NCBI GenBank assembly: GCA_033584155.1
Contig: CP138355.1
Coordinates: 2,279,826-2,303,825 of the forward strand
DNA length: 24,000 bases
Reading direction: 5' to 3'
From: Candidatus Electrothrix scaldis
GTDB lineage: Bacteria > Desulfobacterota > Desulfobulbia > Desulfobulbales > Desulfobulbaceae
The notes below the pieces were generated by a model. It made no database searches. It was not told the DNA's origin and saw only the letters and a list, made by a program, of their open reading frames with translations. Every line of letters begins with the position of its first letter. The stretch's first letter is position 1. Both the position numbers and the translations under genes were made by a program. This document shows, one piece after another, positions 1 through 22,981 of the stretch.

Positions 1-1950
1 CATTTTGGCGGTGATCTCTTTGACAAACTCAGGAGCCTCAGCAGGTACGGTCGGGGGCAGTTCGTGTCCGGTGATCTTGTCCGACAGAGCAACCTCAACG
101 ATGTTGTTGACTGCGGCATCAACGGCGTCGTAGTTCATGTTAACGATCTTATCACCCTTCTTGCCGTAGGTCTTCTTGATCGCGGTCTTGATTGCGTCAA
201 TAGCCTCGTCTTTCTTCAGGATGCCGGAGATCAGGAAGAAAGCGGTCTGCATAATCATATTGATGCGTGCGCCCAGACCAATAGCTAGACCCAGCTTGAT
301 TGCATCGATGATATAGAATTTTGCTTTCTTATCGATCAGCTGCTGCTGTACCTTAGCTGGCAGGTGATCCCAAACCTGATCCTTATCATAGGTAGTAGTC
401 AGCAGGAAGGTGCCGCCGTCTTCCAGGTTAGCCAGCATATCGTAGCTGTTCAGGAAAGTGAAATTATGGCAGGCAATGAAGCTGGCCTTGCTGATCAGGT
501 ACGGAGCAACAACCTGATTCTCACCAAAACGGAGATGAGAAACAGTCATGGAACCGGATTTCTTGGAATCGTAAACAAAATAACCCTGAGCAGAGTTATC
601 TGTCTCAGTACCGATGATCTTAATGGTGTTCTTGTTGGCACCAACAGTACCGTCAGAACCCAGACCGTAGAACATGGCGCGGTAGACATCATCACCTTCG
701 ATGTTGAAGGCCTTGTCGTAGCTCAGAGAGCTGTGAGTCACATCGTCGTTAGGGCCAACGCAGAAATGGTTTTTCGGGGCCAGGGAAGCCATGTTGTCAT
801 ACACAGACTTAACCATTGCCGGGCTGAATTCCGCAGAACCCAGACCGTAGCGACCATTCAGAATCATAGGGACAAACATCGTCGGATTGGCCTCAGCAGC
901 CTCACCGATTGCAGCGCGAACATCCAGATACAGAGGATCTCCCGGAGCACCAGGCTCTTTGCAGCGATCCAATACTGTGATGCGCTCAACAGAAGAGGGC
1001 AGAGCGTTTACCATCGCCTTCATATCAAAGGGGCGGAACAGGCGAACAATAACCATACCCACCTTGCGTCCTTCAGCAACCAGATGGTCGATGGTGGCGG
1101 CCACGGTCTCAGCACCAGAACCCATGATGACAACGACGTCGGTTGCATCAGGCGCACCGTAGTAATCAAAGAGGTGATACTGGCGACCGGTCAGGGCAGC
1201 AAATTTGTCCATTGTCTCCTGGACAATACCTGGAACCGCGTTGTAATACTTATTAACCGTCTCACGACCGGTGAAGTAGACATCCGGGTTCTGGGCTGTA
1301 CCAGACATAGAAGGACGATCCGGGGTCAGCGCGCGGGCGCGGTGCTCGGTGATCAGTTTTTCGTCGATCATCTCCAGCATGTCCTCATTGGTCAACTGCT
1401 CCATTTTCTGGATCTCGTGGGAGGTCCGGAAACCATCAAAGAAATGGAGGAAAGGAATTCTGGAAGCCAGAGTGGACTGGGTAGAGATCAGCGCCATATC
1501 CTGTGCTTCCTGAACGTTTTGTGAACAGAGCATGGACCAACCGGTCTGACGAGCACTCATGACATCGCCGTGGTCGCCGAAGATCGATAGACCCTGACAG
1601 GCAATGGAACGTGCTGTTACATGAAAAACTGTCGGGGTGAGCTCACCAGCCAGTTTGTACATATTAGGCAGCATCAGCAGCAGACCCTGGGACGCGGTAA
1701 AAGTGGTGCAGAGTGCGCCTGTGGCCAAAGATCCATGCAGGGAGCCAGCAACACCACCCTCAGACTGCATCTGAGAGATGACGGGTACAGAACCCCAGAT
1801 ATTTTTCTGCTTCGCAGTGGCCTTGGCATCTGCCTCAGCCGCCATCGGTGAAGAAGGGGTAATGGGGTAGATGGTGATGACTTCACTGGTGGCGTAGGCA
1901 ACATGTGTACACGCCTGATTGCCGTCAATGGTGACCATTTTTCGCGACAT
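1..1950 (-). CDS. por: pyruvate:ferredoxin(flavodoxin) oxidoreductase, homodimeric PFOR/NifJ type; N-terminal 650 codons, 3' end beyond window edge
   Basis: I checked the minus-strand frame triplet by triplet: it is open from 1950 to position 1 with no stop. The ATG at 1950-1948 has an AAGGGAGA Shine-Dalgarno about 7 nt upstream. The translation begins MSRKMVTIDGNQACTHVAYATSEVITIYPITPSSPMAAEADAKA..SQMQSEGGVAGSLHGSLATGALCTTFTASQGLLLMLPNMYKLAGELTPTVFHVTAR..HFFDGFRTSHEIQK. At the window edge it reads ..IKKTYGKKGDKIVNMNYDAVDAAV... Both stretches closely match the Desulfovibrio-type PFOR as I remember it. It is absent from the ORF track only because no stop codon falls inside the window. Confidence 0.92.
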   Translation of the reverse strand, partial: MSRKMVTIDGNQACTHVAYATSEVITIYPITPSSPMAAEADAKATAKQKNIWGSVPVISQMQSEGGVAGSLHGSLATGALCTTFTASQGLLLMLPNMYKLAGELTPTVFHVTARSIACQGLSIFGDHGDVMSARQTGWSMLCSQNVQEAQDMALISTQSTLASRIPFLHFFDGFRTSHEIQKMEQLTNEDMLEMIDEKLITEHRARALTPDRPSMSGTAQNPDVYFTGRETVNKYYNAVPGIVQETMDKFAALTGRQYHLFDYYGAPDATDVVVIMGSGAETVAATIDHLVAEGRKVGMVIVRLFRPFDMKAMVNALPSSVERITVLDRCKEPGAPGDPLYLDVRAAIGEAAEANPTMFVPMILNGRYGLGSAEFSPAMVKSVYDNMASLAPKNHFCVGPNDDVTHSSLSYDKAFNIEGDDVYRAMFYGLGSDGTVGANKNTIKIIGTETDNSAQGYFVYDSKKSGSMTVSHLRFGENQVVAPYLISKASFIACHNFTFLNSYDMLANLEDGGTFLLTTTYDKDQVWDHLPAKVQQQLIDKKAKFYIIDAIKLGLAIGLGARINMIMQTAFFLISGILKKDEAIDAIKTAIKKTYGKKGDKIVNMNYDAVDAAVNNIVEVALSDKITGHELPPTVPAEAPEFVKEITAKM

Positions 1951-2940: not shown

Positions 2941-3696
2941 TTAGAGCAAGATTTCTGTAAGTACTAATCCTGTTGCGGCAAAGAGTAAGCTTGCTGACAG
3001 AAGCACATCGCTTTTTTGCAGACCATTTGTGTCATATAGGCTATGAAATTCCCCCGAGAAACCACGTAACTCCATTGCTTGCTGGACTCGCGTCCCCCGA
3101 TTCCAGCTCCGCACCAGCATCATACCCAACATATAACTATAGGTCCTGTAGGTATGGAGGTCGGTTTTCGGCTGAAAGCAGCGCAAGGTAGCTGCTCGCT
3201 GCAAACGAAAAAGCTCCTGCTGGATGAGTGATATGTAGCGGTAAGAGAAAAGGAGCAGCAGGCAGAGCTTAGGAGAAAGGCGCAGTTGCTGAAGCCCGTG
3301 GCCAAGCTGGGCAGCTGTAGAGGTAGCCAGGAGGCTGATGAAAAGAAGAACAACCGCGTTGGATTTAACGGTGATCAGGAGACCGAGAAAAAGACCAGTA
3401 CTGTTCAGCTTGAGTCCGAGCAGTGAAAAGCTGTCTTCGCCGGTATAGGTCAGCGGCAGAATAAGACAGAGTAAGATATTGAAGCTGTTCACCAGGAGTA
3501 GACGGCGTAGGAGCATCTTCCAGGAAAGATGGGCTGCCAGGACGAGGATGCATGCGAGCAGAAAGCCAAGTAAACTGGTGGCCCAGCTCTGACTCAGGGC
3601 AATAATCAGACTGAGGATAGCAGTGCAGATCAGCTTCGCTCTGGGATCTGTCCGGTGCAGGAATGAAGTGCCGTCACTGAATTGTTCAAAGGTCAT
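2941..3696 (-). CDS. cbiQ: ECF transporter transmembrane (T) component, CbiQ/NikQ
   Basis: 251-aa polytopic membrane protein. The N-terminus ..FLHRTDPRAKLICTAILSLIIAL.. is typical of CbiQ/EcfT. It is the last gene of the cbiM-containing operon. Confidence 0.8.
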   Translation of the reverse strand: MTFEQFSDGTSFLHRTDPRAKLICTAILSLIIALSQSWATSLLGFLLACILVLAAHLSWKMLLRRLLLVNSFNILLCLILPLTYTGEDSFSLLGLKLNSTGLFLGLLITVKSNAVVLLFISLLATSTAAQLGHGLQQLRLSPKLCLLLLFSYRYISLIQQELFRLQRAATLRCFQPKTDLHTYRTYSYMLGMMLVRSWNRGTRVQQAMELRGFSGEFHSLYDTNGLQKSDVLLSASLLFAATGLVLTEILL

Positions 3697-3775
3697 ACGC
3701 TGCCAATAACGTTTTGCGGTGTGTCGCTGCTTGATGAGTTTTTTGAGAGGACTCTAGAAAAGAGTCTTGAGAGAT

Positions 3776-3795
3776 CCCGCCCCCGAAAGGGCGGG
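3776..3795 (-). other. GC-rich intercistronic stem-loop between the periplasmic-component gene and cbiQ
   Basis: CCCGCCC (3776-3782) pairs with GGGCGGG (3789-3795) around a 6-nt loop. No U-tract follows on the minus strand, so this looks like an attenuator or mRNA-stabilising hairpin rather than a full terminator. A second 6-bp hairpin, GACTCT-AGAAA-AGAGTC, lies just 5' of this stem-loop in + coordinates (about 3751-3767). Confidence 0.4.
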
Positions 3796-3833
3796 CATGT
3801 AACTTCTCTTCCTGAACGATAAACGAGGGGGGG

Positions 3834-4604
3834 CTATTTTTTATAGGAGTCCAGGTAAGTCCAAAGAACCGCACCCAGCTCTACTCCCTTCTCGTTTCCT
3901 TCAGGATCCTTGATGGTGTAGTCAGCTTCATTCAGTGCGGCAAATCCCCACCAGCCAGGCTGAGGGCAGGCAAAGGTGAAAACGCCGTTCTCATCAGCCT
4001 TAACTACCTGGGTGACATGGTAGTCGCTCGGTGCTTTGAATTTCTTGTCTTTATTGTACAGCTCAACCTCAACCTCAGCACCAGGAACCGGTTTTCCTTT
4101 TAGCAGAACCTGACCGGAAAAGCTATTGCCTGCATAATTACCAAAAGGACGGGTGAGTGGAACAATCTCTGTGGCAATACCAACTGGCTCGTCCCAGCCT
4201 TGGTCATCACCAAAGGCTGCGATCAGGGTTTTGGTGTAGTGGATGATAGATACATCCTCAGCTGGCTCCCAGTAGGGAGTCGGTTCCATAACAAAGGTGT
4301 ATACGCCAGGGCGTTTAATGGCCACCTCGGTTGTCCAGGCAGCATGATCCATGACCTTCGACTCTTTGAGCGCAGGCAGCAGGTCGGTTTTCTTGTCGCC
4401 TGCCATCATAAAAAATGCCTTAGGTTTTACCAGATCCATGCCGATCATTTCAAAGGGATGGGAAAAAGAAAGGTCAAGTTCAACACTCTTCTTTTTAGGC
4501 TCCAGAATGTTCTCTGAAGGAATAACCATTCCGAAATGGGCAAGGGCCTCACCTGTCATGCAGGCGAGAAAGAGTGCGGTTGCGGCAACAGCTTTGATCT
4601 TCAT
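3834..4604 (-). CDS. periplasmic DUF4198/COG5266-type metal-uptake component (NikK-like)
   Basis: Sec signal peptide MKIKAVAATALFLACMTGEALA with His directly after the predicted cleavage site (HFGMVIPS), as in DUF4198 'nickel uptake' proteins. GGAG RBS 9 nt upstream. Sits inside the cbiM..cbiQ operon. Confidence 0.65.
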   Translation of the reverse strand: MKIKAVAATALFLACMTGEALAHFGMVIPSENILEPKKKSVELDLSFSHPFEMIGMDLVKPKAFFMMAGDKKTDLLPALKESKVMDHAAWTTEVAIKRPGVYTFVMEPTPYWEPAEDVSIIHYTKTLIAAFGDDQGWDEPVGIATEIVPLTRPFGNYAGNSFSGQVLLKGKPVPGAEVEVELYNKDKKFKAPSDYHVTQVVKADENGVFTFACPQPGWWGFAALNEADYTIKDPEGNEKGVELGAVLWTYLDSYKK

Positions 4605-4685
4605 CGGTTGTACTCCTTTTTTTACATCAGATATTATATTTGAGGATCAGAAAATACGATCCAGTTTTTTCCGACAGTGAATTTC

Positions 4686-5294
4686 TTATTCGGCTGTCGA
4701 GTTCTTCTTCTTTTTTTTGTTTGATTGTATCCAGGCAAAGAGAGCGGCCAGGCCGATAATACAGCCGATCCCGCCGACAATATCACGTGGGCGTACTTTT
4801 TTTTCCCGTGCTTCAGCTAATTGTTGTTTTATGGGAGTCAGTTCCCTTGTTAATTCCTGCCGCACTATTTCCCGGACAGTTTTTACATCCAGTGTTCCTT
4901 GGTTTGCCTCCACAACAGGAGAGTTTGTGGAGGCATCCGGCAGAAGGTATTCATCTGCTGTGAGGAGCCATTCTCCACGGTGCCCGTCCCCTGAGTTTGC
5001 TATGATCCGTAGATCAGCTTTTTGTTCTATAGCCTTTTGGGGTGGCGGAAATTGGAATTTTCCTTCTCTATCTGTCTCTACACTGAGAAGAACCGTGTCT
5101 GATTGAGCATTCTGAACCTGTATGGTTATATTCTTTGCCTTGCGTCCCCCACTGAAGAAAGCCTCACCATAGATCTGGTCACCTTCTGCCCAGGAAAATA
5201 TGTTCAGTTTATGTGCCCGGGCTGGTGATGCTGTCAGCAGACTGAACAGGCAGATGAGAACGACAAATATTCCATGAAGAGAAGGTCTCTTCAT
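4686..5294 (-). CDS. bitopic periplasmic protein, NikL-like accessory component of Nik/Cbi ECF transporter
   Basis: Signal peptide ..LLTASPARA followed by HKLNIFSWAEGDQIYGEAFFSGG. It has a C-terminal TM anchor IVGGIGCIIGLAALFAWI plus a Lys-rich tail. Its ATG overlaps the cbiM stop (ATGA at 5291-5294), which suggests translational coupling. Confidence 0.55.
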   Translation of the reverse strand: MKRPSLHGIFVVLICLFSLLTASPARAHKLNIFSWAEGDQIYGEAFFSGGRKAKNITIQVQNAQSDTVLLSVETDREGKFQFPPPQKAIEQKADLRIIANSGDGHRGEWLLTADEYLLPDASTNSPVVEANQGTLDVKTVREIVRQELTRELTPIKQQLAEAREKKVRPRDIVGGIGCIIGLAALFAWIQSNKKKKKNSTAE

Positions 5295-5893
5295 GCGTAC
5301 TTGAGGTGGAGGATTTCAGGCTGTACCTTGGCAAGGAAGCTGACCGTAAACATGGTAATACATCCCTCAATGATCATGATCGGGAGGTTTGCAGCAACAA
5401 TAAGTTGGGCCGCTGCCATGAAGCCTGTGTCTGTCAGGGCAAGAGCGCAGGAGGTCAGGAGTGAGGCCAAGAGGATAGCGAAAAAGCCTGCAAAAAAAGC
5501 AGCTAGAGAACGTGTTTTCGGGTTATCCATCCAAGGACGGGTGAGGTAGTAACAACAAAGGGCTGGGGCACCCATTGTTACTGTATTTACACCAAGAACG
5601 GCAAATCCCCCGAATTGGAAAAACAGGGCTTGCAGAAAGAGGGCAACCAAGATCGCCGGAAAAGCTGCCCACCCGAGCATTACCCCAAGGAGACCGATTA
5701 GCATCAAATGCACGGAACCTGGGCCGAGCGGTACATGAACAAGTCCAGCAACAAAAAAGGCTGAAGAGAGAAGGGCGACAGGCATGATCTCATCAATATC
5801 AATTTTTTTCAAGCCGATAACGGTACCTATTGCAGCTATAACGCCACCACTTATTAAAACTGGTGCGGAAAGAATGCCTTCTGAAATGTGCAT
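5291..5893 (-). CDS. cbiM: ECF transporter substrate-capture (S) component CbiM/NikM
   Basis: The conserved mature N-terminus MHISEGIL.. starts at 5893; Met1-His2 belong to the metal site in CbiM/NikM. The track ORF extends to 6022, but that 43-aa extension is not CbiM-like. The rest is a multi-TM protein. Confidence 0.85.
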   Translation of the reverse strand: MHISEGILSAPVLISGGVIAAIGTVIGLKKIDIDEIMPVALLSSAFFVAGLVHVPLGPGSVHLMLIGLLGVMLGWAAFPAILVALFLQALFFQFGGFAVLGVNTVTMGAPALCCYYLTRPWMDNPKTRSLAAFFAGFFAILLASLLTSCALALTDTGFMAAAQLIVAANLPIMIIEGCITMFTVSFLAKVQPEILHLKYA

Positions 5894-6206
5894 GGGAATC
5901 ACCGGTAATATTTTTTTAATGTTTGTAACACTAAAATCCTGTTTACTATAAAGCAGAATGCTTGTCAAGCTGTAGGTAAAAAATGCAAAAGAAGGATCTT
6001 TTTCGTAGGGAAAATGGGGCACTAAATATTTTTTGAAGAATTTATATTAAAAAATACGGTAATCAAGCCGGTTACAAAGGAAGGGAAGGAGAGATGGAAT
6101 GCAATGCTGTGTAGATAATATTCTGTTTTTTTGCCGTTATTTTGTGTTGCGCTCCTGTGTAATTGGGTAGGGAAAGATAGGGTTAACAGATCATGCAAAA
6201 AAAATA

Positions 6207-6872: not shown

Positions 6873-6912
6873 AAAAAAGGGGGCACAGGGAATTTCTCCC
6901 TATGCCCCCTTT
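6873..6912 (-). terminator. rho-independent terminator of the Cys-repeat gene (potentially bidirectional)
   Basis: On the minus strand, AAGGGGGCATAGGGAGAAATTCCCTGTGCCCCCTT is followed by TTTTTGTG. The outer stem is 9 bp perfect with an inner AGGGA/TCCCT pairing. It lies 31 nt past the stop at 6943. Confidence 0.75.
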
Positions 6913-6942: not shown

Positions 6943-8004
6943 TTAGTGCTGAAAACGCAGGCCGATACCAAAACGTCCGTACTGATCAATATCACTCATC
7001 TCGTCAACAGCACTTCGGGCTTCCAGGAATACGGAGATATTGAAAGCATTGGGATCTCCGTACACGCGAGCACCTATATTGGCGAGAACGTCAAGGTCGG
7101 AATCATCGGAATCAAGATCGCTGTCATTATCAGTGATCCAACCACCGAGACCCAGGCCGACAAAGCCATCAAAGGCTCCAGACCAGTTATACTGAGCAAA
7201 AACATCAACAAGTAATGCATCATCGCCGTCTGAACCGTCCAATTTAGGAGCAGCTCCTGCCATTGCCAGGAAGGAGAGATTCTCAAGCGAGGTGCCTGCA
7301 AAGGGAGAATATTGAACACCCAAGCGGGCAAAGAGATAGTCTGCTGGATCAGAGAGACGCAGGTAACCAAGGTCGCCAACAAAGCGCAAAGGGCCTATTG
7401 CCAGATCTGCTTCTGTGTCTTCTATCTCGTCGGTGTCTGTATCATCGACAACGTCAGTCGGCAAACACTCAGCAGGAACTCCCTGGCATTCAGCCGGGCA
7501 ACCTTCCTGATCCTTGGTATCGTCTACGCAGGATTCAGGGCAATCTGTGGGAAATTTATCACAGATATTACAGCCCAATTCATCGCATACAGGAGGACAA
7601 TTCTCACCTTCAGGGTTTTCAATACATTCTACAGAACAATCATCACAGCTGTAACATTTTATGTCACGACAGATATCCGGACAACCTTCGCCGTAGGGAT
7701 TCATTTTACATTCCGGAGTACAGTCCTCGCAGGATTGACAACTGATATCCTTGCAGATGTCTGGGCATCCTGGACTATAAGGATTCATTTTGCACTCGTC
7801 TGAGCAGTCGTCGCAGGATGCCTGGGATGCCTGACATGCCGGATCTTTACATACAGATGGACAGCCCTTGCCATAAGGATTCTCCAGACATTCATCTGAG
7901 CAGTCATCGCAGGTATAGGCTTTGCCACCGGCAAAAGCAACACCTGTCGACAACAGGACGAAAACAGCACCCTGTGCCAACACTTTCAGTCTCATTGTTC
8001 TCAC
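6943..8004 (-). CDS. secreted cysteine-rich tandem-repeat protein with C-terminal beta-barrel-like (outer-membrane?) domain; unknown family
   Basis: AAGGAGAG RBS. Signal peptide MRTMRLKVLAQGAVFVLLSTGVAFA/GG. 30 Cys fall between residues 32 and 180 in about 28-aa repeats, followed by an acidic linker. The C-terminal ~150 aa consist of alternating-hydrophobic strands with Asp-rich loops and end GIGLRFQH. Confidence 0.8.
   Translation of the reverse strand: MRTMRLKVLAQGAVFVLLSTGVAFAGGKAYTCDDCSDECLENPYGKGCPSVCKDPACQASQASCDDCSDECKMNPYSPGCPDICKDISCQSCEDCTPECKMNPYGEGCPDICRDIKCYSCDDCSVECIENPEGENCPPVCDELGCNICDKFPTDCPESCVDDTKDQEGCPAECQGVPAECLPTDVVDDTDTDEIEDTEADLAIGPLRFVGDLGYLRLSDPADYLFARLGVQYSPFAGTSLENLSFLAMAGAAPKLDGSDGDDALLVDVFAQYNWSGAFDGFVGLGLGGWITDNDSDLDSDDSDLDVLANIGARVYGDPNAFNISVFLEARSAVDEMSDIDQYGRFGIGLRFQH
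7570..7911 (-). repeat. in-frame tandem coding repeats (4 units of 84-96 nt) encoding the 6-Cys module
   Basis: The units start at Cys32, Cys64, Cys92 and Cys120. Consensus: C-[DE]-D-C-[ST]-x-E-C-x2-N-P-[YE]-[GS]-x-[GN]-C-P-x-[VI]-C-[KRD]-[DE]-x2-C. A degenerate fifth unit extends to 7462. Confidence 0.8.
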
Positions 8005-8097
8005 TCTCCTTGTTCTGTGAAGTTTATCTCATTGCCCGTGGTTGCGGACGAACTGCATTTTCCCTACAAAAGAGGGTAAAATTTTTTTTACTTATAA

Positions 8098-8126
8098 TAT
8101 ATATAAAGTCCTTGGTGATCTGGCAA
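8098..8126 (-). promoter_or_regulatory. candidate sigma70 promoter of the Cys-repeat gene
   Basis: Minus strand: TTGCCA (8126-8121), a 17-nt spacer, then TATATA (8103-8098). This gives a 5' UTR of about 90 nt. Confidence 0.35.
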
Positions 8127-8296
8127 CAGAAAAAAACAACAAGCAGCTATAGCGATGTTTTTCGGCCCTGAAAAAGCTTTGCAGGTGAAAAATACAAATA
8201 GCAGTTGCTTTTGACTTCCCAGGGGCTACAGTAAAATGAACAGTATGTTACTGCGTGGTCAACAAATGGGTTGTTTTTTGTTTTTCTTTAACAGGT

Positions 8297-8920
8297 ATGG
8301 TGGAAATGAAAAAGATACCTCTCCTCACCGGGCTACTTTGGTTGCTTATATGTCTGGGGCACAGCTTTTCTTTCGAGTTGATCAGGCAGGATGTTGTTCA
8401 ATTCCCCTTAGCCCTCCTTCTCTCTATTCTTTTACCAGTGAGCTTCTGGCTGCTTGCCAAGGGTGAGAAACAGCGATATCTTGCCCTGCTTTTTGTCGGG
8501 ATATTTATAATCAACACTTCCTTTCTGTTCATTATCATGCGCGGCAGTTTTGCCACCAAGCAGCAAATGACTGAGCAGCTCAAGGCGGGAATACAGCCAG
8601 ATCTGGCAGAATATCTCATTACCGCTGTGAGTGCTCATAAACGACAGATTGCAGCCCGGCTTATTTATCAGCTGCATGGGGTGGCCTTACCCTTTAAAAA
8701 CGATGCCGGTGGCTATACCTTATATGAACCCGACAAGGCCGATAAGGAAAAATTTCAAAAGAATTTTTTCGCCCAGAATGACCTGAAACTGAGACAAGGA
8801 GGCTTTGCAGCGTCTTTTGCCACAGCAACACTTTTGATGTTGATTCATGTCGGGCTGTTTATTGCCTTACTGGTTTTTTTAGTGCTTTATGATCAGGGAA
8901 AGCTGGAAAGAGATGAGTAA
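8297..8920 (+). CDS. hypothetical integral membrane protein (about 4 TM with a ~100-aa soluble loop)
   Basis: The ORF is open 8255-8920. Likely starts are ATG 8297 (MVEMKKIPLL) or 8306. Hydrophobic segments: IPLLTGLLWLLICLG, FPLALLLSILLPVSFWLLA, YLALLFVGIFIINTSFLFIIM and FAASFATATLLMLIHVGLFIALLVFLVLY. I recognised no motif. Confidence 0.6.
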   Translation: MVEMKKIPLLTGLLWLLICLGHSFSFELIRQDVVQFPLALLLSILLPVSFWLLAKGEKQRYLALLFVGIFIINTSFLFIIMRGSFATKQQMTEQLKAGIQPDLAEYLITAVSAHKRQIAARLIYQLHGVALPFKNDAGGYTLYEPDKADKEKFQKNFFAQNDLKLRQGGFAASFATATLLMLIHVGLFIALLVFLVLYDQGKLERDE

Positions 8921-13554: not shown

Positions 13555-14361
13555 TTAAGATGCTTCGGAGCCTGAAACTGCGACACCGGTTTTTATTTCC
13601 AGTATGACATCAAGAGGGAATCCAGTGGTTTTGGCTATAATATCAGGAGCAATCCCCTCCTGAAGTAAAGCCTTGGCAACAGAGAGCTTGCCCTCGTCAA
13701 ACTGTGTTTTTTGGAGTTCTTCCTGATGATACTCTTCAATCATCCGCGCACGTTCAGCAGGTGAGATCCGATTCTTCTGGATGTGCTCAAAGAGTTTATG
13801 AATCTCTGGTCGAGTATAGCATTTTTCATCAACTTCTTCATCCAACGTGTCATTGATTGCCTGCAACCATTCCCGATAGGGTTCCGGTGTGTCGTCACTT
13901 ACATATTTCGGGCAGAGATAGATAATCTTATGCGGAATTTCTTTTAGAGGGTGGCCTGATAAATCGTGAGGATCAAAATCTGTAATTGCGATGTCTGTTT
14001 TATGACGGTCACCGGAAGTCAGAACCACAAGGGTGTACACCTTGAGTGGTGGATGATAATCTTTTGAATTTGCAATCTGCTCCAATAAAGCGACACAGTG
14101 ATAATAAAGAAACCTGTCGTAATGATCAATGCTGCGGGCATGCTGAATATCAACGATGACACGGTGTTTCTTGTCTTCTGCAAACAAATCAAAACGCGGT
14201 GCGACATAACCTATGGGAGAATTAAATTCTTTTTCGGTTTCAACCTGTTCGATTTCCAGAGTCAGCCCCAGTATGTCTTGAATAAATGCGGCAAAGATCT
14301 CCGGGTCACAGAATGCTTTTTTAAAGACAACTCCGTATCGTAATGATGCCACATGTTTCAT
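13555..14361 (-). CDS. PD-(D/E)XK nuclease family transposase / Rpn-like recombination-promoting nuclease
   Basis: MKHVASLRYGVVFKKAFCDPEIF..FDLFAEDKKHRVIVDIQHA.. shows the PDDEXK_2 pattern D..(D/E)xQ. The C-terminal helical tail reads ..AKALLQEGIAPDIIAKTTGF. The 19-codon N-terminal extension in the track runs into the IS terminal repeat, so I start the gene at ATG 14361 (GAGG 11 nt upstream). Confidence 0.7.
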   Translation of the reverse strand: MKHVASLRYGVVFKKAFCDPEIFAAFIQDILGLTLEIEQVETEKEFNSPIGYVAPRFDLFAEDKKHRVIVDIQHARSIDHYDRFLYYHCVALLEQIANSKDYHPPLKVYTLVVLTSGDRHKTDIAITDFDPHDLSGHPLKEIPHKIIYLCPKYVSDDTPEPYREWLQAINDTLDEEVDEKCYTRPEIHKLFEHIQKNRISPAERARMIEEYHQEELQKTQFDEGKLSVAKALLQEGIAPDIIAKTTGFPLDVILEIKTGVAVSGSEAS

Positions 14362-14383
14362 TGAGATTAACCTCGTATTTTTA

Positions 14384-16121
14384 CCTAAATTGAGCGATTC
14401 ATGGTCTGGGTAAAGCAATTCCGGTAAGAAAAGCTCAATTTTTTAAAAATTGGTTCTCAGGGGAAAACAAAAACACCTCTGAATATAGCTTTTCTTCAGA
14501 TCCGTTACGTTTTGGGGCCAATTTCCGCAGTTTTCATGAAAATTGGGCGCACTTATCCTGTCTGAATTCAAATTGAGAATTGCCAGAGATGCTCACCTAG
14601 TGTTGTAACACAGGGGGCTCAATACACCTTTTTAACATTTCGGCTAATTGAAGCCCTTCAAAAGCACACCGGGCCACTTTTAATACAACCTGACCGCTGT
14701 GCCTGACAATTTTACCCGCTACATCTATCAGTTGACGGCGCACTGTTGATGCATAGGCTGTTATTGAAACTACGGGAGAAGCTGCATCCTCTTTGAATGA
14801 TTCAAAAAGAAAAAAGCCGACCAGTAGCATGTAATACCACGCAGCGTTTGGAGTGAATCGAGTGAACGGCAGTTGTTCATGGCCAAAATCCTTGAAACCT
14901 CGGTTAACCAACTCGTCGCTACCGCGTACATGATACCCTGCAACAATAGCGTTGGCACTTACATATTCTGACATAACTCCCGCCTTTTCAAGAAGTTCGT
15001 CAATAGTTCCGCCACGCCCAAGATTTGTAATGATCACGGTGTCTGGACCAGTTCCTGGAAGCCGAAGCTGAGACCCGTGGTTGCACAGGCGACAGTATAT
15101 AGCACGTCGAAATTGCTTCCAATTACCCCTTTTAGTGTCGAATTCCGCATACTCCCAAATATCTTTCTTACCGGGTGCGGCAAAACGCCTCCAACGGGTT
15201 GTCTCACTTGCAAATTCTTTTATATCTTTATACATCTTCCCACCACAGATATAACCAACACCAAGTTGCTCACAAGATTCAAAAAATCTTCTGGTCGAAA
15301 AAACCACTGTCCATTCGGATAACAATCGGGACATCATGTCGATATTCCTTTCTGATGCGATTCACAATATGCAATATCATTTTTTGGACAGTGTCACCGT
15401 GATTCGAGTGCTTATCACCACCGCGAAAAACCGCATCTACAAAAAATCTTCCCCAGTTCATCTGTAACGGCTGGAATCCTTTCTTTTTTTTATAGGTCGG
15501 TTTTACTCCATGTCGACACTCTGCGTCATCGTTTTCCATAACCATTGTATCAATGCCGAGTTCAACAACGGCTGGCTTGGTTATATTCAATCGCCAAATG
15601 AACAGTTTCTGCAGCAGACGTCGAAAAACAAACACTTTAACAAAAGAAAAATTGCCGAAAAAACGCTTGATTGTATGCGAGGAGGCCATGTCATCCTCTG
15701 ATGTCTCTATACAGGCGGCATAGCCCTTATCTGCCTTAAGATCGTCAAAGTACACCAGATGTCGACTGGTTCCGTCCATCATGAAACAGAATATCTGCTT
15801 GAATATCTCAACCGCCGATGCACCTTTTTTGCTTTTTCTCAGATCGCCGAACAAACTCTCAATAATAGGGAATAATGAAATACCATGCAGGTACGCTATA
15901 AAAAGAGACAGACCTGACCGACTGGTCAAACAGTCGTCAGTTATGTCAATATAATTAATTTTCAGGTCACTTTTTCGATAGGTCGTGTTTTTTTTTCTTC
16001 ATGGTACTTCACCCGGAGGGTTGCAAATCAATTAAGCTGTAGTTCTTTACTTACATGAATAATAACATATGGTTGAAACATGGAAAAGGATTATTTTATA
16101 TCAAGAATCGCTCAATTTAGG
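14384..16121 (-). mobile_element. IS1380-family insertion sequence (1738 bp) with intact terminal inverted repeats and 5-bp target-site duplication
   Basis: IRL CCTAAATTGAGCGATTC (14384-14400) is the exact reverse complement of IRR GAATCGCTCAATTTAGG (16105-16121). Direct repeats TTTTA flank it at 14379-14383 and 16122-16126. The CC termini, 4-5 bp duplication and single long DDE ORF fit the IS1380 family as I recall it. Confidence 0.8.
14597..16002 (-). pseudogene. IS1380-family DDE transposase disrupted by two single-nucleotide frameshifts in homopolymers
   Basis: ATG at 16002 gives MKKKK..., which hits a stop after the A9 run (15988-15996 on +). Removing one A joins it to ..NTTYRKSDLKINYIDITDDCLTSRSGLSLF (track ORF 15279-15929). 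A second shift sits at the T6 run (15281-15286). Removing one T joins ..RMDSGFFDQKIF to ESCEQLGVGYICGGK.. (track ORF 14597-15337). DDE-type motifs: GIDTMVME, RMDSGF and ..GHEQLPFTRFTPNAAWYYMLL. The repaired length is about 467 aa. Confidence 0.8.
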
Positions 16122-16183: not shown

Positions 16184-16651
16184 TTATAAAATTTTTAAGA
16201 TGTTATTAATCAAAGATTTAGCATAAACTCTTCTTTTCTCTGCTTGCTGTATTATATATTCAATACCTTCCTTTGTTCCTACATCTGCCTTGGAGATATC
16301 GTCAACTTTATTAGCAAATAGACTCACTACCTCAAGTTGCTTTTCTGCTTCAAAATACTGGGTGTAGATTTTCCATTGTTCTTGAAAATAGTTCTTTTTT
16401 CGTTGTGGAAGAAATAGCATCAATTTTCTAGCAGCTTTATCTTCGTCTGGAAAAAATTGTGTAACGAGCGAACCTGGATCTTTTTTAGGGTCATCAAGCT
16501 GTTGTAGATGTGGAATAAATACCTCTTTGAAACTCAGTATCTCTCCTTTAAGAATTTTATCTAAATCCCATCTTTTGTTTATTCGGTGAGTAAGAAATAG
16601 AGTTAGTAAAACTCCTAAAATTGCACCTATAGATATTTTTAAATCTATCAT
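16184..16651 (-). CDS. hypothetical protein, N-terminal TM helix plus helical cytoplasmic domain; very AT-rich
   Basis: 155-aa ORF with N-terminal MIDLKISIGAILGVLLTLFLTH and a charged helical remainder. I saw no recognisable motif and no clear SD. It lies 38 nt downstream of the Rpn-fragment ORF. Confidence 0.5.
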   Translation of the reverse strand: MIDLKISIGAILGVLLTLFLTHRINKRWDLDKILKGEILSFKEVFIPHLQQLDDPKKDPGSLVTQFFPDEDKAARKLMLFLPQRKKNYFQEQWKIYTQYFEAEKQLEVVSLFANKVDDISKADVGTKEGIEYIIQQAEKRRVYAKSLINNILKIL

Positions 16652-17268: not shown

Positions 17269-18864
17269 TTATTTCATATCTTTGGTTGAGTTTATTCTTC
17301 TCCGTAAGTGATATTTTTTTGGTAGCCCCTTAACTTGAACAGGCTCAAAGTGTTTCATAATATATTGCCAGAGCAATGTATGCGTATTTCGAAAACGCAA
17401 GTTCTCCCGCCCGTCAAGCGCCACATCCCCCAGAACGATCCAGTTGACGTTATTCGTTTCGACATCTGAAATTTGTTGGTGTTGATCAGCTTTTGAAGCC
17501 GTCCATAAAAAGTACGTGTCCCATAGAGGTGATTTTTTTTGTAAAATGGGATAAAATCCAGGCCAATGCGGAGCAATTAGCACTCCTTCATCTGGATGTA
17601 CTTTTGAGGCTACGACCTCCCTGACAGTGTGGATCAGGTTGGCAGTATATTTATGCAGCCAGAGTATATCTCCATGAATGTCCTTCTGGACAAATGAATC
17701 AGGAGTAGACAATTTCCGATAATATGGGCTGACCATAGCAATAGACAAAAAAGATAATATATAGACAACAATAAGGAAGCCTACTCCTACTTTTTTTATA
17801 TACACTTGTTTACAGAAAAATGGCAACGAGAGTAATCCGATTAAAAGAGGATGAATGGCTTGCGCGAGATGGTTGATATCAGCCCGGCTAAAGGCATGAT
17901 GCATATAAGGAATGCCTATAAAAACGGAGGCAATAATAACAGATTTCCGTCGCAGCTCTTTGGGGTGAATGAGTAGTGTGTATATTGATGAAAATATGTA
18001 GAAAGCTGGTAACAAAAGAAAGAAAACACCTGTAGAAATAAATTGAATGGCTGTTAGTGGGCTGGTATGTGAAATGTTTACCTTCCAGGGCCATGGTACA
18101 GGCAATGGAAGATTAGTACTTTTACTTTGTAACATGCCAGTGATGCTTTGTATAAACAGATCAAAAAAATCAGGAAGACCGATGAACATGAAAAGCATAG
18201 GAGAGTAACCGACAACGACCCCGATGTTCCATATCGCAAGGTGTTTGAAAAATCCATCTTTCCCAATTTTTAGCCATATAAACCCTATCAAAAGACAAAA
18301 TGATATACTTGTGTACAGTCCATGATTGCGTCCGAAAAAAGCTGATATGCCAACAAAGAAACCGGCAATAAAATGTCTTTTAAATGTTGGTCGCTCAAGA
18401 AGGATGATAGCAAAATAAACCGCCATCATTGCGAGACTTGATTCAAACAGTTTCCAACGAGGGTGCATCCAAATAAGGAGCAACACTCCCGCACTTACAA
18501 GTCCCCACCAGGAGTGAATGACTCGCCTTAATGCTAGTAAACCGCATAGCAATCCAATCGCCTGAAAGATTGCGGTCGAAAGACGAAGAGCGATGATCCC
18601 ATCTCCCAGGATAAATGAACAGGCTGCCCCCCAATAATAACGACCGGGATCGTATGACCGAAAGTCACGTAGTGGAACGTTGCCATCAATGGTCGCGAGC
18701 GTTCCATGCCAGAGAAAGCCTTCATCAGCTAGACCTATGCCGATGTTCCCTTGAAGCCAAAATGAGATTCCCACCAACGTAAAAGCAAGTAAAGCTGTGG
18801 TTAAACTGCTCGGAATTATTTGGTATACTTTGCAATGCAATGAATCTGTGATTACTGTTTTCAT
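17269..18864 (-). CDS. GT-C fold membrane glycosyltransferase (ArnT / PMT_2 / GT39-83-like)
   Basis: 531 aa with about 11-13 TM segments. The first periplasmic loop LADEGFLWHGTLATIDGNVPLRDFRSYDPGRYYW matches the DE..(aromatic)..G..P..PP/PG.YYW signature of ArnT/PMT-type polyprenyl-phosphate-sugar transferases. There is a ~150-aa soluble C-terminal domain. Confidence 0.65.
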   Translation of the reverse strand: MKTVITDSLHCKVYQIIPSSLTTALLAFTLVGISFWLQGNIGIGLADEGFLWHGTLATIDGNVPLRDFRSYDPGRYYWGAACSFILGDGIIALRLSTAIFQAIGLLCGLLALRRVIHSWWGLVSAGVLLLIWMHPRWKLFESSLAMMAVYFAIILLERPTFKRHFIAGFFVGISAFFGRNHGLYTSISFCLLIGFIWLKIGKDGFFKHLAIWNIGVVVGYSPMLFMFIGLPDFFDLFIQSITGMLQSKSTNLPLPVPWPWKVNISHTSPLTAIQFISTGVFFLLLPAFYIFSSIYTLLIHPKELRRKSVIIASVFIGIPYMHHAFSRADINHLAQAIHPLLIGLLSLPFFCKQVYIKKVGVGFLIVVYILSFLSIAMVSPYYRKLSTPDSFVQKDIHGDILWLHKYTANLIHTVREVVASKVHPDEGVLIAPHWPGFYPILQKKSPLWDTYFLWTASKADQHQQISDVETNNVNWIVLGDVALDGRENLRFRNTHTLLWQYIMKHFEPVQVKGLPKKYHLRRRINSTKDMK

Positions 18865-19727: not shown

Positions 19728-21410
19728 TCAACGGTTATACGACTGTTTTTGGAGAAGTGGAGCGCCGTTATAGTCGTGCTCGGTTTTTTCGACGATATAA
19801 TTTCCTAATACCAAACAATCCATGCCACAGCGGTAAAAGGTACGGAGAGCATCCTCAGGGCTACATACAATCGGTTCGTCTGATAAATTGAAACTGGTAT
19901 TTAAGAGAACGGGAACTCCTGTCAGTTTTCTGAATTCATCAATAAGAGTCCAAAACCGCAGATTCACTGCTTGACTGACGGTCTGGGGGCGTGCAGTGCC
20001 ATCGACGTGGGTCGCGCTGACCATTTCATGAATTTTTTCAGGCTTCACCTGAAACGTCAGTGTCATATAAGGTGAGTGAAAAAAATTTTCTAAATACGCA
20101 GGAGCATATTCTTCTAAAATAGAAGGTGCAAAAGGTCGCCATGGTTCTCTTCCTTTGACTTTTATGTTTATTTGGTCTTTCATATCAGGATTCTTAGGAT
20201 TGGCGAGAATACTTCTATGCCCCAATGCTCGTGGTCCCACTTCTAATCGTCCTTGAAACCAACCGATGATCTTGTTTGCCGCTAACATATTTGCAGTCTC
20301 TTTACAGACATTCTCAACATAGCGATACTTGCTGACGTTACACTTAACAAGAGCAGCTTCAATATCATCATGATGATATTCTGGCCCCCAGTAAGGGTGT
20401 GTAAAACCGATATCAGGTTTTTCCCCTTTTTTATCAAGATGCACTTGAATTGCAGCCCCTAATGCAGTTCCTGAGTCCCATGAAGATGGGTGGATATAAA
20501 TATGGTCGATGAGACCTGACCTCAGTAATGTGCCATTCATGGCACAATTAAGAGCGACTCCTCCTGATACACATACATTTCGCGATGTCGTTTTTTGAAC
20601 GGTCCACTCAAGCATCCGCAAAACGACCTTTTCAAGAGATGCTTGAGCTGTGGCGGCAATATCCTGACTCGTTTTGCTCATAGGGTTATGGGGATCGACA
20701 ACATGACCAACCCATCGCCGGTAGCGACGGTATTTTTCTCTGTTAACTGAGGGAATGGGTGTATCCCATTCAATAAAAGGCAGTCCTTGTGGATCAGGAG
20801 TGCCGAAGGATGCCAGCCCCATGACTTTATACTCGTCAGCATGGGGTTGAAAACCCAGAAGCCGGGTTATCCTTGAAAAAACATGACCCAAGCTGTTGGA
20901 ATTGCTGATTTCATGATAGTTTTTTATATTTGTTCCTTCGGCATAGCCAAGAAAACCGGCATTCTTTCCGCCAGAGCCATCCAAAGAGAGGATATTGGCA
21001 TGTTCAAACCCGGAACTATAAAAGGCTGTATTCACATGCGAAAGATGGTGATTAATAAAGAAGGGCTTTTTTTCAGAGATATGTCTGGGAATTTTGAACA
21101 TATGTCTTGTAAGGTGCATCGTAAAGAATCCGGCTGTCAAAACACCATACACAATAGGCTGACCGGTCAAATTAGGAATGATATTTTTCAAAAATTTATC
21201 GAATCCCACAGCGACATAATCAACATCCTGCCATGTTATTCCAGCCTTTTCCAAACAAAATATTATCGCCTGCTTTGGGAACATTCTCGGAGCAAACTTA
21301 ATACGGGCAAAACGCTCTTCTTCTGCCATCGCAACAAGTCGTCCATCAATGAGCAGGCAGGCTCCATTATCCTGCGAAATAGGGTGGGTTATACCAAGGA
21401 TAACCGTCAT
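19728..21410 (-). CDS. carbamoyltransferase, NodU/CmcH/TobZ family
   Basis: 560 aa. The N-terminus ILGITHPISQDNGACLLIDGRLVAMAEEERFARIKF and the stretches ..HHLSHVNTAFYSSGF.. and ..VSGGVALNCAMNG.. are typical of Carbam_trans_N. The C-terminal ..GHRSILANP....VDGTARPQTV....VLLNTSFN matches Carbam_trans_C. AGGAGGAAATT RBS. Confidence 0.88.
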   Translation of the reverse strand: MTVILGITHPISQDNGACLLIDGRLVAMAEEERFARIKFAPRMFPKQAIIFCLEKAGITWQDVDYVAVGFDKFLKNIIPNLTGQPIVYGVLTAGFFTMHLTRHMFKIPRHISEKKPFFINHHLSHVNTAFYSSGFEHANILSLDGSGGKNAGFLGYAEGTNIKNYHEISNSNSLGHVFSRITRLLGFQPHADEYKVMGLASFGTPDPQGLPFIEWDTPIPSVNREKYRRYRRWVGHVVDPHNPMSKTSQDIAATAQASLEKVVLRMLEWTVQKTTSRNVCVSGGVALNCAMNGTLLRSGLIDHIYIHPSSWDSGTALGAAIQVHLDKKGEKPDIGFTHPYWGPEYHHDDIEAALVKCNVSKYRYVENVCKETANMLAANKIIGWFQGRLEVGPRALGHRSILANPKNPDMKDQINIKVKGREPWRPFAPSILEEYAPAYLENFFHSPYMTLTFQVKPEKIHEMVSATHVDGTARPQTVSQAVNLRFWTLIDEFRKLTGVPVLLNTSFNLSDEPIVCSPEDALRTFYRCGMDCLVLGNYIVEKTEHDYNGAPLLQKQSYNR

Positions 21411-21438
21411 AATTTCCTCCTGTTGTCAGTCATTTCTC

Positions 21439-22977
21439 TCAGAGATGTGACCGCTGGCTTTTTCCCTTACGTTTTAACATATTGGTGACATGTCTGTGTG
21501 CTAGCATGAATAACACACTAAAACTATATCGAATGTCACCTGGGGTTCTAAATTTTGGCAGCAAACAATTGACAAATTTTTTTGGGTGGAGATAAAATGA
21601 AACCTTATGCAAGAGCCACCCCTGTGAAGCATTGAGTTGAATGGCATTCAATTCGTCCGCCGTGATTTCAAGAGTATCATGCCAAGCCCCGAAAATAAAC
21701 GACCCTTTCATACTCTCTTTTTCTAAAAGTTGCTCTTTGTGGTAGATGTCATATAATTCGGTTCCAATATAGGGTTGAGCCACAAAAAAATGAGCGAAGT
21801 CAAGTTGAGAGCTATAGGCAAATGCAACAGTTTCCATGATTTGTTCACGTGTTTCATAAGGGAAACCGATAATGAAGAATGCGCCTGTCCAATAGCCGAG
21901 TGTGTTGGCTTTTCGAACCAATCTGCTGACCTGATCTAAATCGACATTTTTTTGAATAAATTTAATAGTTTCAGCGTTGCCGCTTTCAACCGGCATCGTG
22001 AGTTTGTAAAATCCGGCCTGACGCATCTTGACAAGCAATTGCTCGTCATCTACCAACCAAATGCTTAAGCCAGCGATATTGCTAAATGCAATGTCTAATT
22101 TTCTGTCAATGAAATAGTCACAGAACGCATAAATTCGGTCTTTTTTGAGAATAAATTGATCGTCAAGAATGCAGAATTCACGGATACCATAGTCTGAGAC
22201 CAGCATTTCAATTTCTTTGACCACGTTGTCAATGCTTCGTGGTCTCCATCGACGTCTCCACAAATTTTTACTACAACAAAAGACGCATTGATAGGGACAA
22301 CCGCGGGAGGTCATGATAGTTGCAATGGGCTTTTTGCGGGAAAAATTGAACTGTTTATGATTCGTCCGCATATAGTGTTCCATATCAATAAACGCCCGAT
22401 CAGGGATAGGTAGACGATCCAAATCCTCAATAAATTCTCGATGAGGATTCATGACAACAGTATTTTCAGCATTTCGGAAGCATAAACCATCTACCGCAGC
22501 CAAACTCATTTCCCCGCGAAGCGCCCGTACCAAGTGCTCTAACGTAATTTCACCTTCATGACATACAATATAATCAATACAGGAATATTCATGGAGAATG
22601 GATTGAGCCTCTAAGGTGGCATGAGCGCCGCCTATCACAATAGGTACAGAAGGATAGAGTTCTTTTGCCATCTCAGCGACTTCTACCGCTTCTGCAAAAT
22701 ATCCTGAAAAACAACAGCCGATGCCGATAAGGTCAGGTTGATTTTTTTTCAATTCCTTATGAATGACTGTCTTGTCATGAACACCTTTGACATATAAGTC
22801 CCCTTGTTGTTTTGGGGCTTCGGCCCCCATCGCATACAGATCAAGAATGGATATGTGGATTTCATCCCGAAGTACCTGTCGCAAATATGTCGCCAGACTA
22901 ACTAAGCCTAAAGGTTCTGAAAGATAAATATTCGTATCTCGAACAGTAATATATGGGTGTATCAACACAATGTTCAT
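21439..22977 (-). CDS. B12-binding-domain radical SAM enzyme (class B rSAM, probable methyltransferase)
   Basis: The likely start is MNIVLIHPY.. at 22977, with AGGAGA 8 nt upstream inside the preceding gene. The N-terminal Rossmann/B12-like region reads ..DLIGIGCCFSGYF..VPIVIGGAHAT... The rSAM motif is SRGCPYQCVFCCS (CxxxCxxC). The track ORF extends to 23049. Confidence 0.8.
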   Translation of the reverse strand: MNIVLIHPYITVRDTNIYLSEPLGLVSLATYLRQVLRDEIHISILDLYAMGAEAPKQQGDLYVKGVHDKTVIHKELKKNQPDLIGIGCCFSGYFAEAVEVAEMAKELYPSVPIVIGGAHATLEAQSILHEYSCIDYIVCHEGEITLEHLVRALRGEMSLAAVDGLCFRNAENTVVMNPHREFIEDLDRLPIPDRAFIDMEHYMRTNHKQFNFSRKKPIATIMTSRGCPYQCVFCCSKNLWRRRWRPRSIDNVVKEIEMLVSDYGIREFCILDDQFILKKDRIYAFCDYFIDRKLDIAFSNIAGLSIWLVDDEQLLVKMRQAGFYKLTMPVESGNAETIKFIQKNVDLDQVSRLVRKANTLGYWTGAFFIIGFPYETREQIMETVAFAYSSQLDFAHFFVAQPYIGTELYDIYHKEQLLEKESMKGSFIFGAWHDTLEITADELNAIQLNASQGWLLHKVSFYLHPKKFVNCLLPKFRTPGDIRYSFSVLFMLAHRHVTNMLKRKGKSQRSHL

Positions 22978-22981
22978 AATG

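Follow-up and report, generated by a model that had tools for sequence, protein, structure and literature searches.

A 30-cysteine repeat protein with a predicted outer-membrane barrel in cable bacteria

In classical outer-membrane barrels with an even number of strands, both termini are periplasmic. In OmpA and OprF, a small barrel is N-terminal and is followed by an extra domain. In BamA and LptD, N-terminal periplasmic domains precede a C-terminal barrel. Here, we analyse a gene on the minus strand of a 24,000-nucleotide stretch of the Candidatus Electrothrix scaldis genome (contig CP138355.1; hereafter the window). Its product consists of a signal peptide, a repeat region with 30 cysteines, an acidic linker, and a C-terminal domain of about 150 residues, the predicted fold of which (residues 200-350) resembles PagL (2erv), NspA (1p4t), the OprF N-terminal domain (4rlc), OmpW (2f1t), OmpX, and the OmpA N-terminal domain. 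The extra domain is N-terminal and the barrel is C-terminal, the reverse of OmpA and OprF. The order of parts is that of BamA and LptD, implying that the N-terminal module stays in the periplasm. However, the barrels of BamA and LptD have 16-26 strands and are joined to POTRA or jellyroll domains, and neither protein is related to ours in sequence or fold.

The combination of cysteine repeat and barrel is a core gene specific to cable bacteria, which is not found discussed in the literature searched. We give about an even chance to the reading that the product is a lineage-specific envelope protein, anchored in the outer membrane and facing the periplasm, whose cysteine repeat may form a disulfide-stapled stalk with a structural role.

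A cysteine repeat joined to a predicted barrel

The protein begins with a Sec signal peptide, and residues A22 and G23 at its cleavage site (VAFA/GG) are invariant in the orthologue alignment. In the full-length AlphaFold2 (AF2) model, calculated from 24 orthologues with a mean predicted local distance difference test (pLDDT) score of 80, the signal peptide scores below 50, as expected for a cleaved peptide. The 30 Cys lie at residues 29 to 177 of the 350-residue protein (19% Cys). The spacing is exact in four units (C-x2-C-x3-C-x8-C-x3-C-x4-C), and a degenerate fifth unit follows. A twin C-x3-C...C-x3-C core is present in all five units, with short helices predicted on both arms. The units are mutually 50-73% identical in protein and 51-65% identical in DNA; as judged from these comparisons, they are old, diverged repeats, each conserved with its orthologous counterpart. 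Residues 23-180 contain 35 Asp or Glu versus 10 Lys or Arg, and no His. In the full-length model, residues 24-180 form short helices, with blocks mostly at pLDDT 83-90. When the cysteine region is modelled alone, it is again predicted as ordered short helices (pLDDT 82.6).

The whole protein has no match in Pfam, NCBIfam, or the PDB sequences (for Pfam and NCBIfam even at E ≤10). In addition, none of 16 orthologous cysteine domains scanned singly matches a Pfam family, and Foldseek finds no match to the isolated cysteine-region model in the PDB. The cysteine repeat is a new domain without detectable relative. A borderline profile match to the Cys-rich, disulfide-bonded poxvirus entry-fusion protein A16/OPG143 among the PDB sequences (about 130 residues, E 0.007) is rejected as compositional, because its bias is 12 against a score of 18.8 bits and because the Foldseek search of the PDB, which holds these entries, is empty. 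A Pfam match to RALF (E 0.6-2.7) is likewise rejected.

Known cysteine-rich families were considered one at a time. The repeat has no CxC or CC motifs and matches no metallothionein family, and AF2 gives confident ordered short helices. Its spacing, CxxCxxxC...CPxxC, gives no match to the 4Fe-4S ferredoxin model Fer4, which the neighbouring open reading frame (ORF) of 61 residues matches strongly. The CxxCH motif of c-type cytochromes is absent from residues 23-180, as is any His. The repeat does resemble the twin-CX3C helical hairpins of small Tim proteins and plant alpha-hairpinins, which carry C-x3-C...C-x3-C on two antiparallel helices. However, our protein differs from them in its third, outer Cys pair, its loop of 8-9 residues, its very short helices, and the tandem arrangement of its units. 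Foldseek finds no PDB relative of the cysteine domain. Therefore, the likeness to these hairpins is a resemblance, not a match.

The repeat is strongly conserved. In 24 aligned sequences, 23 of the 30 Cys are invariant and seven are conserved in at least 90%, and 22 of the 24 have exactly 30 Cys in the five-unit region. Therefore, the Cys pattern is not due to chance. The outer-Cys spacings co-vary across units: (2,4) in 135, (6,6) in 33, and mixed in two. Mean pairwise identity is 59% at the non-Cys positions of the cysteine region, 65% in the barrel, and 30-33% in the linker, and the fixed non-Cys residues of the repeat include the NPY turn and CPDIC-D--C of unit 3. The linker is the main site of difference among orthologues, ranging from 20 to about 90 residues (about 20 in the window protein); in most orthologues it holds a Pro/Glu-rich spacer, a sixth Cys unit, or both. 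The total Cys of orthologues are 30, 36, 37, 44, or 49, the last in a single protein that has further units. The Ca. Electrothrix gigas orthologue (L022 8001-9248) has a Pro/Glu-rich spacer of about 90 residues and a four-Cys mini-unit between stalk and barrel. Two further proteins (P0011 and P0014) show a long spacer like that of E. gigas. The mini-unit in P0011 and P0012 lacks exactly the two inner Cys.

In the AF2 model, residues 203-349 form eight long strands, with blocks mostly at pLDDT 85-97. The top Foldseek matches in the PDB are PagL, NspA, the OprF N-terminal domain, OmpW, and OmpX, followed by OmpA. All top matches are eight-stranded outer-membrane barrels (probability 1.00, target TM-score 0.59-0.66, E 1e-4 to 1e-3). 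The automatic UniRef name of the protein is 'Outer membrane protein beta-barrel domain-containing'. These models and matches support a small eight-stranded outer-membrane barrel, which by predicted structure is a member of the OmpA/OmpX-like superfamily; its fold is of a known kind, and its sequence family is new. As in known eight-stranded barrels, the strands are amphipathic, a signal peptide is present, and the family consensus ends in GLRFxF, a typical outer-membrane protein end. However, no Pfam or NCBIfam barrel model matches, identity to the structural matches is 11-18%, the loops are unusually Asp-rich and conserved, and the last residue is His rather than aromatic (GLRFQH). The last residue of the Electrothrix orthologues is H, L, R, Q, or Y. 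Autotransporter (type V) barrels have 12 or 16 strands; eight are predicted here, and autotransporter barrels are only weak, partial Foldseek matches.

The Asp-rich connections of the barrel include DGSDGDD, DNDSDLDSDDSDLD, and a helix at 330-339. Three longer connections (residues 255-262, 289-302, and 330-339; window positions about 6979-7233) are extremely acidic and are kept superfamily-wide, with the consensus GGW-x3-GD-x-D-x-D-x-ED-x3-DL. From the sequence, they look like a divalent-cation site on the presumed outer face. The thrombospondin type 3 model TSP_3 is not matched; the stretch rich in Asp is a loop of the barrel that the whole family conserves.

Most of what an earlier, sequence-only reading of this DNA had proposed for the protein agrees with these results: Sec export with cleavage at VAFA/GG, a repeat of no named family, distinct from ferredoxin, CxxCH haem-binding, and thrombospondin type 3 motifs, an acidic linker, Asp-rich loops, and a small outer-membrane barrel ending in GIGLRFQH. 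Its count of 30 Cys in four units and a degenerate fifth is correct as well, but the four units are too diverged to be called near-identical. That reading had also staked its case on the repeat being conserved outside this genome, and the 30 Cys are indeed kept in the aligned sequences.

Distribution and paralogues

The product is 100% identical to WPD24874.1 of Ca. Electrothrix scaldis GW3-3, which bears out the earlier speculation that the DNA comes from cable bacteria. Of 5.8 billion clustered proteins, 73 match, and all those with an organism name are from cable bacteria (Electrothrix, Electronema, or cable-type 'Desulfobulbus sp.'), the best being Ca. Electrothrix aestuarii with 99% identity. 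An index-free hidden Markov model search of 1.84 billion representative proteins gives 83 matches, all through the barrel part of the profile; the cysteine repeat occurs without the barrel in none of the 83. A word-indexed search with the cysteine region alone is limited by its prefilter and uninformative, since it returns three fragments and misses the 99%-identical E. aestuarii protein (P0001).

A scan of one genome per GTDB species (185,579 species) identifies full-length orthologues at 20 loci in about 19 assemblies. Seventeen of the loci are from named Electrothrix or Electronema and three from unclassified Desulfobulbaceae metagenome-assembled genomes (MAGs). The species include E. laxa, E. 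aarhusensis, E. gigas, E. marina, YB6, En. aureum GS, En. halotolerans, and En. nielsenii. The scan uses two short conserved patterns from the orthologue alignment, one of them CPDIC[RK]DI, and therefore only fairly close relatives are detectable; a diverse barrel-only alignment is too divergent for this use. Every cable-bacterial species genome that the scan recovered carries the gene, and no named organism outside the cable bacteria has it. On these searches, the architecture of the window gene is restricted to cable bacteria, where it is a core gene of both genera.

The barrel is common to a small family with three architectures. Type A, represented by the window gene, consists of signal peptide, cysteine repeats, and barrel. 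In type B, the signal peptide is followed by an N-terminal domain of about 150 residues (NPFYxPPL...CGNLAL), a Pro-rich or VPGPERIV-type linker or a PKD spacer, and the barrel. Type C combines the type B N-terminal domain with other Cys-rich modules and the barrel. The cable-bacterial paralogues (P0040 of type B; P0032, P0071, and P0074 of type C) share with the window protein the same barrel (40-65% identity), the signal peptide, and the organisms. They differ from it in carrying the N-terminal domain of about 150 residues and in their spacer, which is Pro-rich, PKD, or Cys-rich with another pattern of more basic character. Beyond cable bacteria, distant members of type B are found, for example in a Desulfocapsaceae MAG, but none of type A.

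The N-terminal domain of types B and C (G-x-HPFY-x-PPL...WM...Y-x-F-x-VP-x-CGN) has no Pfam annotation (P0040, P0047, P0088, P0142, and others). It is joined to the barrel through a Pro-rich segment, VPGPERIV repeats, or one or two PKD domains. Proteins of types B and C are an uncharacterised modular family centred on Desulfobulbales. One paralogue bears the name 'IMCp domain', which is rejected as arising from the low complexity of VEKIVE-type linkers.

Several Electronema genomes have a paralogue in tandem, directly upstream of the type A gene (L019 6991-7761, L020 6473-7777, and L021 2745-3509). The L020 paralogue translates to a full type C protein, with the NPFY...CGNLAL domain, an irregular Cys-rich region, and the same barrel. 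The tandem type C paralogue suggests that duplication, with loss of the N-terminal domain, gave rise to the Cys-only form, or that the change went the other way.

The gene and its neighbourhood

The window contains the ORF 6943..8004 on the minus strand, listed with a GTG start at 8004. The real start is almost certainly the ATG at 7995, because AAGGAG lies 10 nucleotides (nt) 5' of it and because all orthologues start with MKLKVL or MRLKVL. Therefore, the 353-residue product of the sequence-only reading is replaced by one of 350 residues, relative to which the residue numbers of that reading are +3.

In the upstream alignment of seven Electrothrix species, the hexamers TTGCCA and TATATA, about 100 nt before the start, are invariant. 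A consensus scan for sigma70 promoters upstream of the gene gives no call, since the -10 hexamer ends in A. It is plausible, from this conservation, that the gene has its own promoter. Thus, the sigma70-like promoter proposed earlier fails the consensus scan but gains from the conservation of TTGCCA-17 nt-TATATA across the seven species. The claim of a textbook terminator is confirmed by a stem and T-run, and together with the conserved hexamers this supports the claim of a stand-alone transcription unit. The features of the gene are listed in Table 1.

Table 1 Features of the gene and its product, in window coordinates
Feature	Position	Strand	Details
Putative sigma70-type promoter	8098..8126	-	TTGCCA (8126-8121), 17-nt spacer, TATATA (8103-8098); preceded by a T-run
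Conserved 5' leader, about 95 nt	7996..8091	-	Small hairpin GTCCG...CGGGC
Ribosome-binding site AAGGAG	8006..8011	-	10 nt before ATG; invariant in the Electrothrix upstream alignment
Coding sequence	6943..7995	-	350 aa (amino acids) and stop codon 6943-6945; 99-100% identity to Ca. Electrothrix aestuarii/scaldis proteins
Sec signal peptide, aa 1-22	7930..7995	-	MRLKVLAQGAVFVLLSTGVAFA / GG; n, h, and c regions readable from the sequence
Cysteine unit 1, aa 29-54	7834..7911	-	C-x2-C-x3-C-x8-C-x3-C-x4-C; best-conserved unit, 71% identity at non-Cys positions
Cysteine unit 2, aa 61-86	7738..7815	-	C-x2-C-x3-C-x8-C-x3-C-x4-C
Cysteine unit 3, aa 89-114	7654..7731	-	Holds the invariant CPDIC-D--C
Cysteine unit 4, aa 117-142	7570..7647	-	C-x2-C-x3-C-x8-C-x3-C-x4-C
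Degenerate cysteine unit 5, aa 145-177	7465..7563	-	C-x6-C-x3-C-x9-C-x3-C-x6-C
Acidic disordered linker, aa 181-199	7399..7455	-	Poorly conserved; pLDDT <50
C-terminal eight-stranded outer-membrane beta-barrel (predicted), aa 200-350	6946..7398	-	AF2, Foldseek; ends GIGLRFQH
Intrinsic terminator	6876..6912	-	17-bp stem with 9 G-C pairs, then T-run

About 130 nt 5' of the start codon (7996-8126, minus strand) are unusually well kept across the seven Electrothrix species. In YB6, the leader hairpin is GCCCGC/GCGGGC. By RNAalifold, the leader has a weak structure with one compensatory pair only, and an Rfam search of the window, leader included, gives no match. Inspection of the conserved upstream region by eye reveals no sigma54 promoter, NikR-like site, or evident metal-regulator operator.

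The neighbouring genes are, in order, those for a HAD phosphatase, CbiQ, a DUF4198 protein (NikK), NikL, CbiM, and a 2x[4Fe-4S] ferredoxin, followed by our gene. Beyond it comes the gene for a divergent membrane protein that matches no Pfam family, and then those for a sigma54 response regulator, another HAD protein, and a MiaB-like enzyme. The nik locus (2941-6022, minus strand) reads CbiM-NikL-NikK(DUF4198)-CbiQ, with no ATPase gene (NikO/CbiO) adjoining; the HAD phosphatase gene is next, on the opposite strand. This layout agrees with the 'nikMLKQ' locus of Hiralal et al. 2024 (PMC11247825), who draw pgp, the nik genes, fd, and an uncommented 'hyp.' for closed cable-bacterial genomes. We infer that this 'hyp.' is our gene.

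About 1 kb separates the gene from fd-nikMLKQ in Electrothrix, and this side is kept wherever a locus has sufficient flanking sequence, E. gigas and YB6 included. The other side, with the membrane protein and the sigma54 regulator, is kept in Electrothrix except E. gigas and YB6. The window's neighbours are absent around the orthologue in all Electronema loci found, where unrelated housekeeping genes are present instead; the divergent membrane protein has no counterpart there either. From these comparisons, the nik adjacency looks like genus-level inherited gene order, not conserved functional pairing. The nickel link is weak, since the adjacency is confined to Electrothrix and no Electronema locus shows it. 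Co-occurrence with nikMLKQ, suggested earlier as a check, holds as adjacency within Electrothrix and fails in Electronema. The functional weight that had been placed on the Ni/Co importer is not sustained, with the adjacency lost in one genus and no NikR-type or sigma54 element evident upstream.

Four sizeable ORFs without Pfam match are found at 364-1524 (plus strand), 8255-8920 (plus), 16184-16651 (minus), and 17269-18864 (minus). Of these, the 386-residue ORF and the 221-residue membrane protein are conserved beside the nik/Cys-protein region in Electrothrix species and are absent from the Electronema loci examined. The region 13555-15929 (minus) contains a PD-(D/E)XK family transposase ORF and two adjacent ORFs matching halves of a DDE_Tnp_1_4 transposase, probably a frameshifted or decayed insertion sequence; it breaks synteny with other Electrothrix loci beyond the ABC ATPase gene. 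The region 19728-23992 (minus) encodes a carbamoyltransferase (NodU/CmcH type), a B12-binding radical SAM enzyme, and a further ORF that runs to the window edge, and it looks like a small modification/biosynthesis cluster unrelated to the Cys-repeat gene.

Role of the cysteine stalk

In the reading that we favour, the protein would be exported by the Sec pathway and cleaved at AFA/GG, and its C-terminal 150 residues would then enter the outer membrane as a barrel of the OmpX/PagL/NspA type. Since both ends of such a barrel are periplasmic, the N-terminal cysteine part would lie in the periplasm and the Asp-rich connections outside. The N-terminal part would hang into the periplasm on the flexible acidic linker as a rod of five small helical units, each with a twin C-x3-C...C-x3-C core and an outer Cys pair, and each stapled by three nested disulfides (about 15 in total). 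The rod would serve as a rigid spacer or stalk, would have a conserved surface for binding, and would tether the outer membrane to, or space it from, a periplasmic structure in the specialised envelope of cable bacteria. The periplasmic orientation, the disulfide state, and the structural or tethering role are what we infer from the following.

The evidence leans towards a disulfide-stabilised structural repeat rather than a metal-thiolate site, because the twin C-x3-C core is invariant, the outer-Cys spacings co-vary, and the mini-unit lacks the two inner Cys. In addition, an acidic region without His would be unfavourable for 30 thiolates and unusual for Ni sites. In the paralogues, the same position is filled by a Pro-rich linker, VPGPERIV-type repeats, PKD domains, or cysteine repeats, and this replaceability points to a rigid stalk. 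The strong conservation of the non-Cys surface suggests that the stalk binds something specific. Several points weigh against this reading. The disulfide pattern is derived from Cys spacing, and the co-variation of spacings goes back to a small number of independent events in evolution. Part of the habitat of cable bacteria is sulfidic, reducing sediment. The cysteine domain has no PDB relative by Foldseek, and its non-Cys residues are kept more strongly than a passive spacer needs. N-terminal domains joined to small C-terminal barrels could also conceivably be surface-exposed. The literature searched yields no expression or localisation data for the protein.

A possible but doubtful alternative is that the repeat is a thiolate-rich module under the outer membrane, which would bind a metal (Ni, Cu, or Fe) or attach through S-S or S-metal bonds to the oligomers of nickel bis(dithiolene) (NiBiD) in the conductive periplasmic fibres, thereby anchoring, nucleating, or capping them. 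In accordance with this idea, the gene, like the NiBiD cofactor, is specific to cable bacteria and present in both genera (PMC12093952), the cysteine domain is probably periplasmic, the non-Cys residues of the repeat are about as conserved as the barrel, and the gene is close to fd-nikMLKQ in Electrothrix. Comparative genomics gave no periplasmic nickel-binding candidate for the fibres (PMC11976967). In models from structural work, the terminal sulphurs of NiBiD oligomers form S-S links to Cys, such cross-links being one possible capping of the oligomer ends, and Cu and S are reported in the cartwheel (10.1101/2025.10.10.681601, PMC13534509). However, the nik adjacency is lost in all Electronema loci, the region combines a strong acidic excess with a lack of His, the C-x2-C spacing is lost in unit 5, cysteine modules are interchangeable with Pro-rich or PKD spacers in the paralogues, no metal-binding family is matched, and a protein fixed in the outer membrane cannot itself form a continuous fibre. 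The more specific proposal that the 30-Cys stalk, reaching from the outer membrane into the ridge compartments, is a protein partner of the NiBiD conductor, using S-S or S-Ni links to the oligomer ends (or to the cartwheel Cu/S) to template, cap, or fasten the fibres to the outer membrane, we regard as quite unlikely.

It is also unlikely that the barrel serves as an anchor displaying the cysteine domain on the cell surface, for attachment of a sheath or surface layer or for contact with other filaments or minerals. Some adhesin families do pair a large exposed N-terminal domain with a small C-terminal barrel. Disulfide-rich acidic repeats, and the PKD domains of the paralogues, are typical of extracellular proteins, and cable bacteria have surface layers and sheaths (PMC12093952). 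The predicted eight-stranded barrel argues against surface display, since its pore is too narrow to export a passenger of 160 residues and it bears no known signature of type V secretion, which requires 12 or 16 strands. In addition, the long conserved Asp-rich connections lie opposite the N-terminus, like extracellular loops in standard outer-membrane protein topology. The high thiol density in the compartment where sulfide enters, and the restriction of the gene to a lineage of sulfide oxidisers, would suit a periplasmic redox or sulfane-sulfur carrier or buffer (a persulfide/polysulfide shuttle or a thiol/disulfide capacitor) for electrogenic sulfide oxidation. We consider such a carrier highly improbable: the protein has no similarity to the SoxYZ, Sud, TusA, DsrE, or rhodanese families, a shuttle would hardly be expected to be fixed in a membrane, and the rigid, fully conserved six-Cys geometry looks structural.

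The literature searched contains nothing specific on this protein or its accessions, nor on cysteine-rich proteins, fibre proteomics, or Dsb in cable bacteria, and structural work of 2025-26 does not settle by which proteins the NiBiD ribbons are held. The search for the proteins of the conduction machinery of cable bacteria continues. The gene is a candidate for that gap, because it is cable-specific and its product is exported, predicted to be anchored in the outer membrane, and equipped with 30 conserved Cys in a fold without known relative. A link of the protein to nickel or conduction is unproven; if the stalk were a partner of NiBiD, the gene would be a genetic marker and an entry point for reconstituting a biosynthetic nickel-organic wire. 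Even if the disulfide-stapled stalk is purely structural, the protein defines a new cysteine-repeat domain and a small modular family, mainly cable-bacterial, that shares an outer-membrane anchor and bears on how the ridged envelope of cable bacteria is built.

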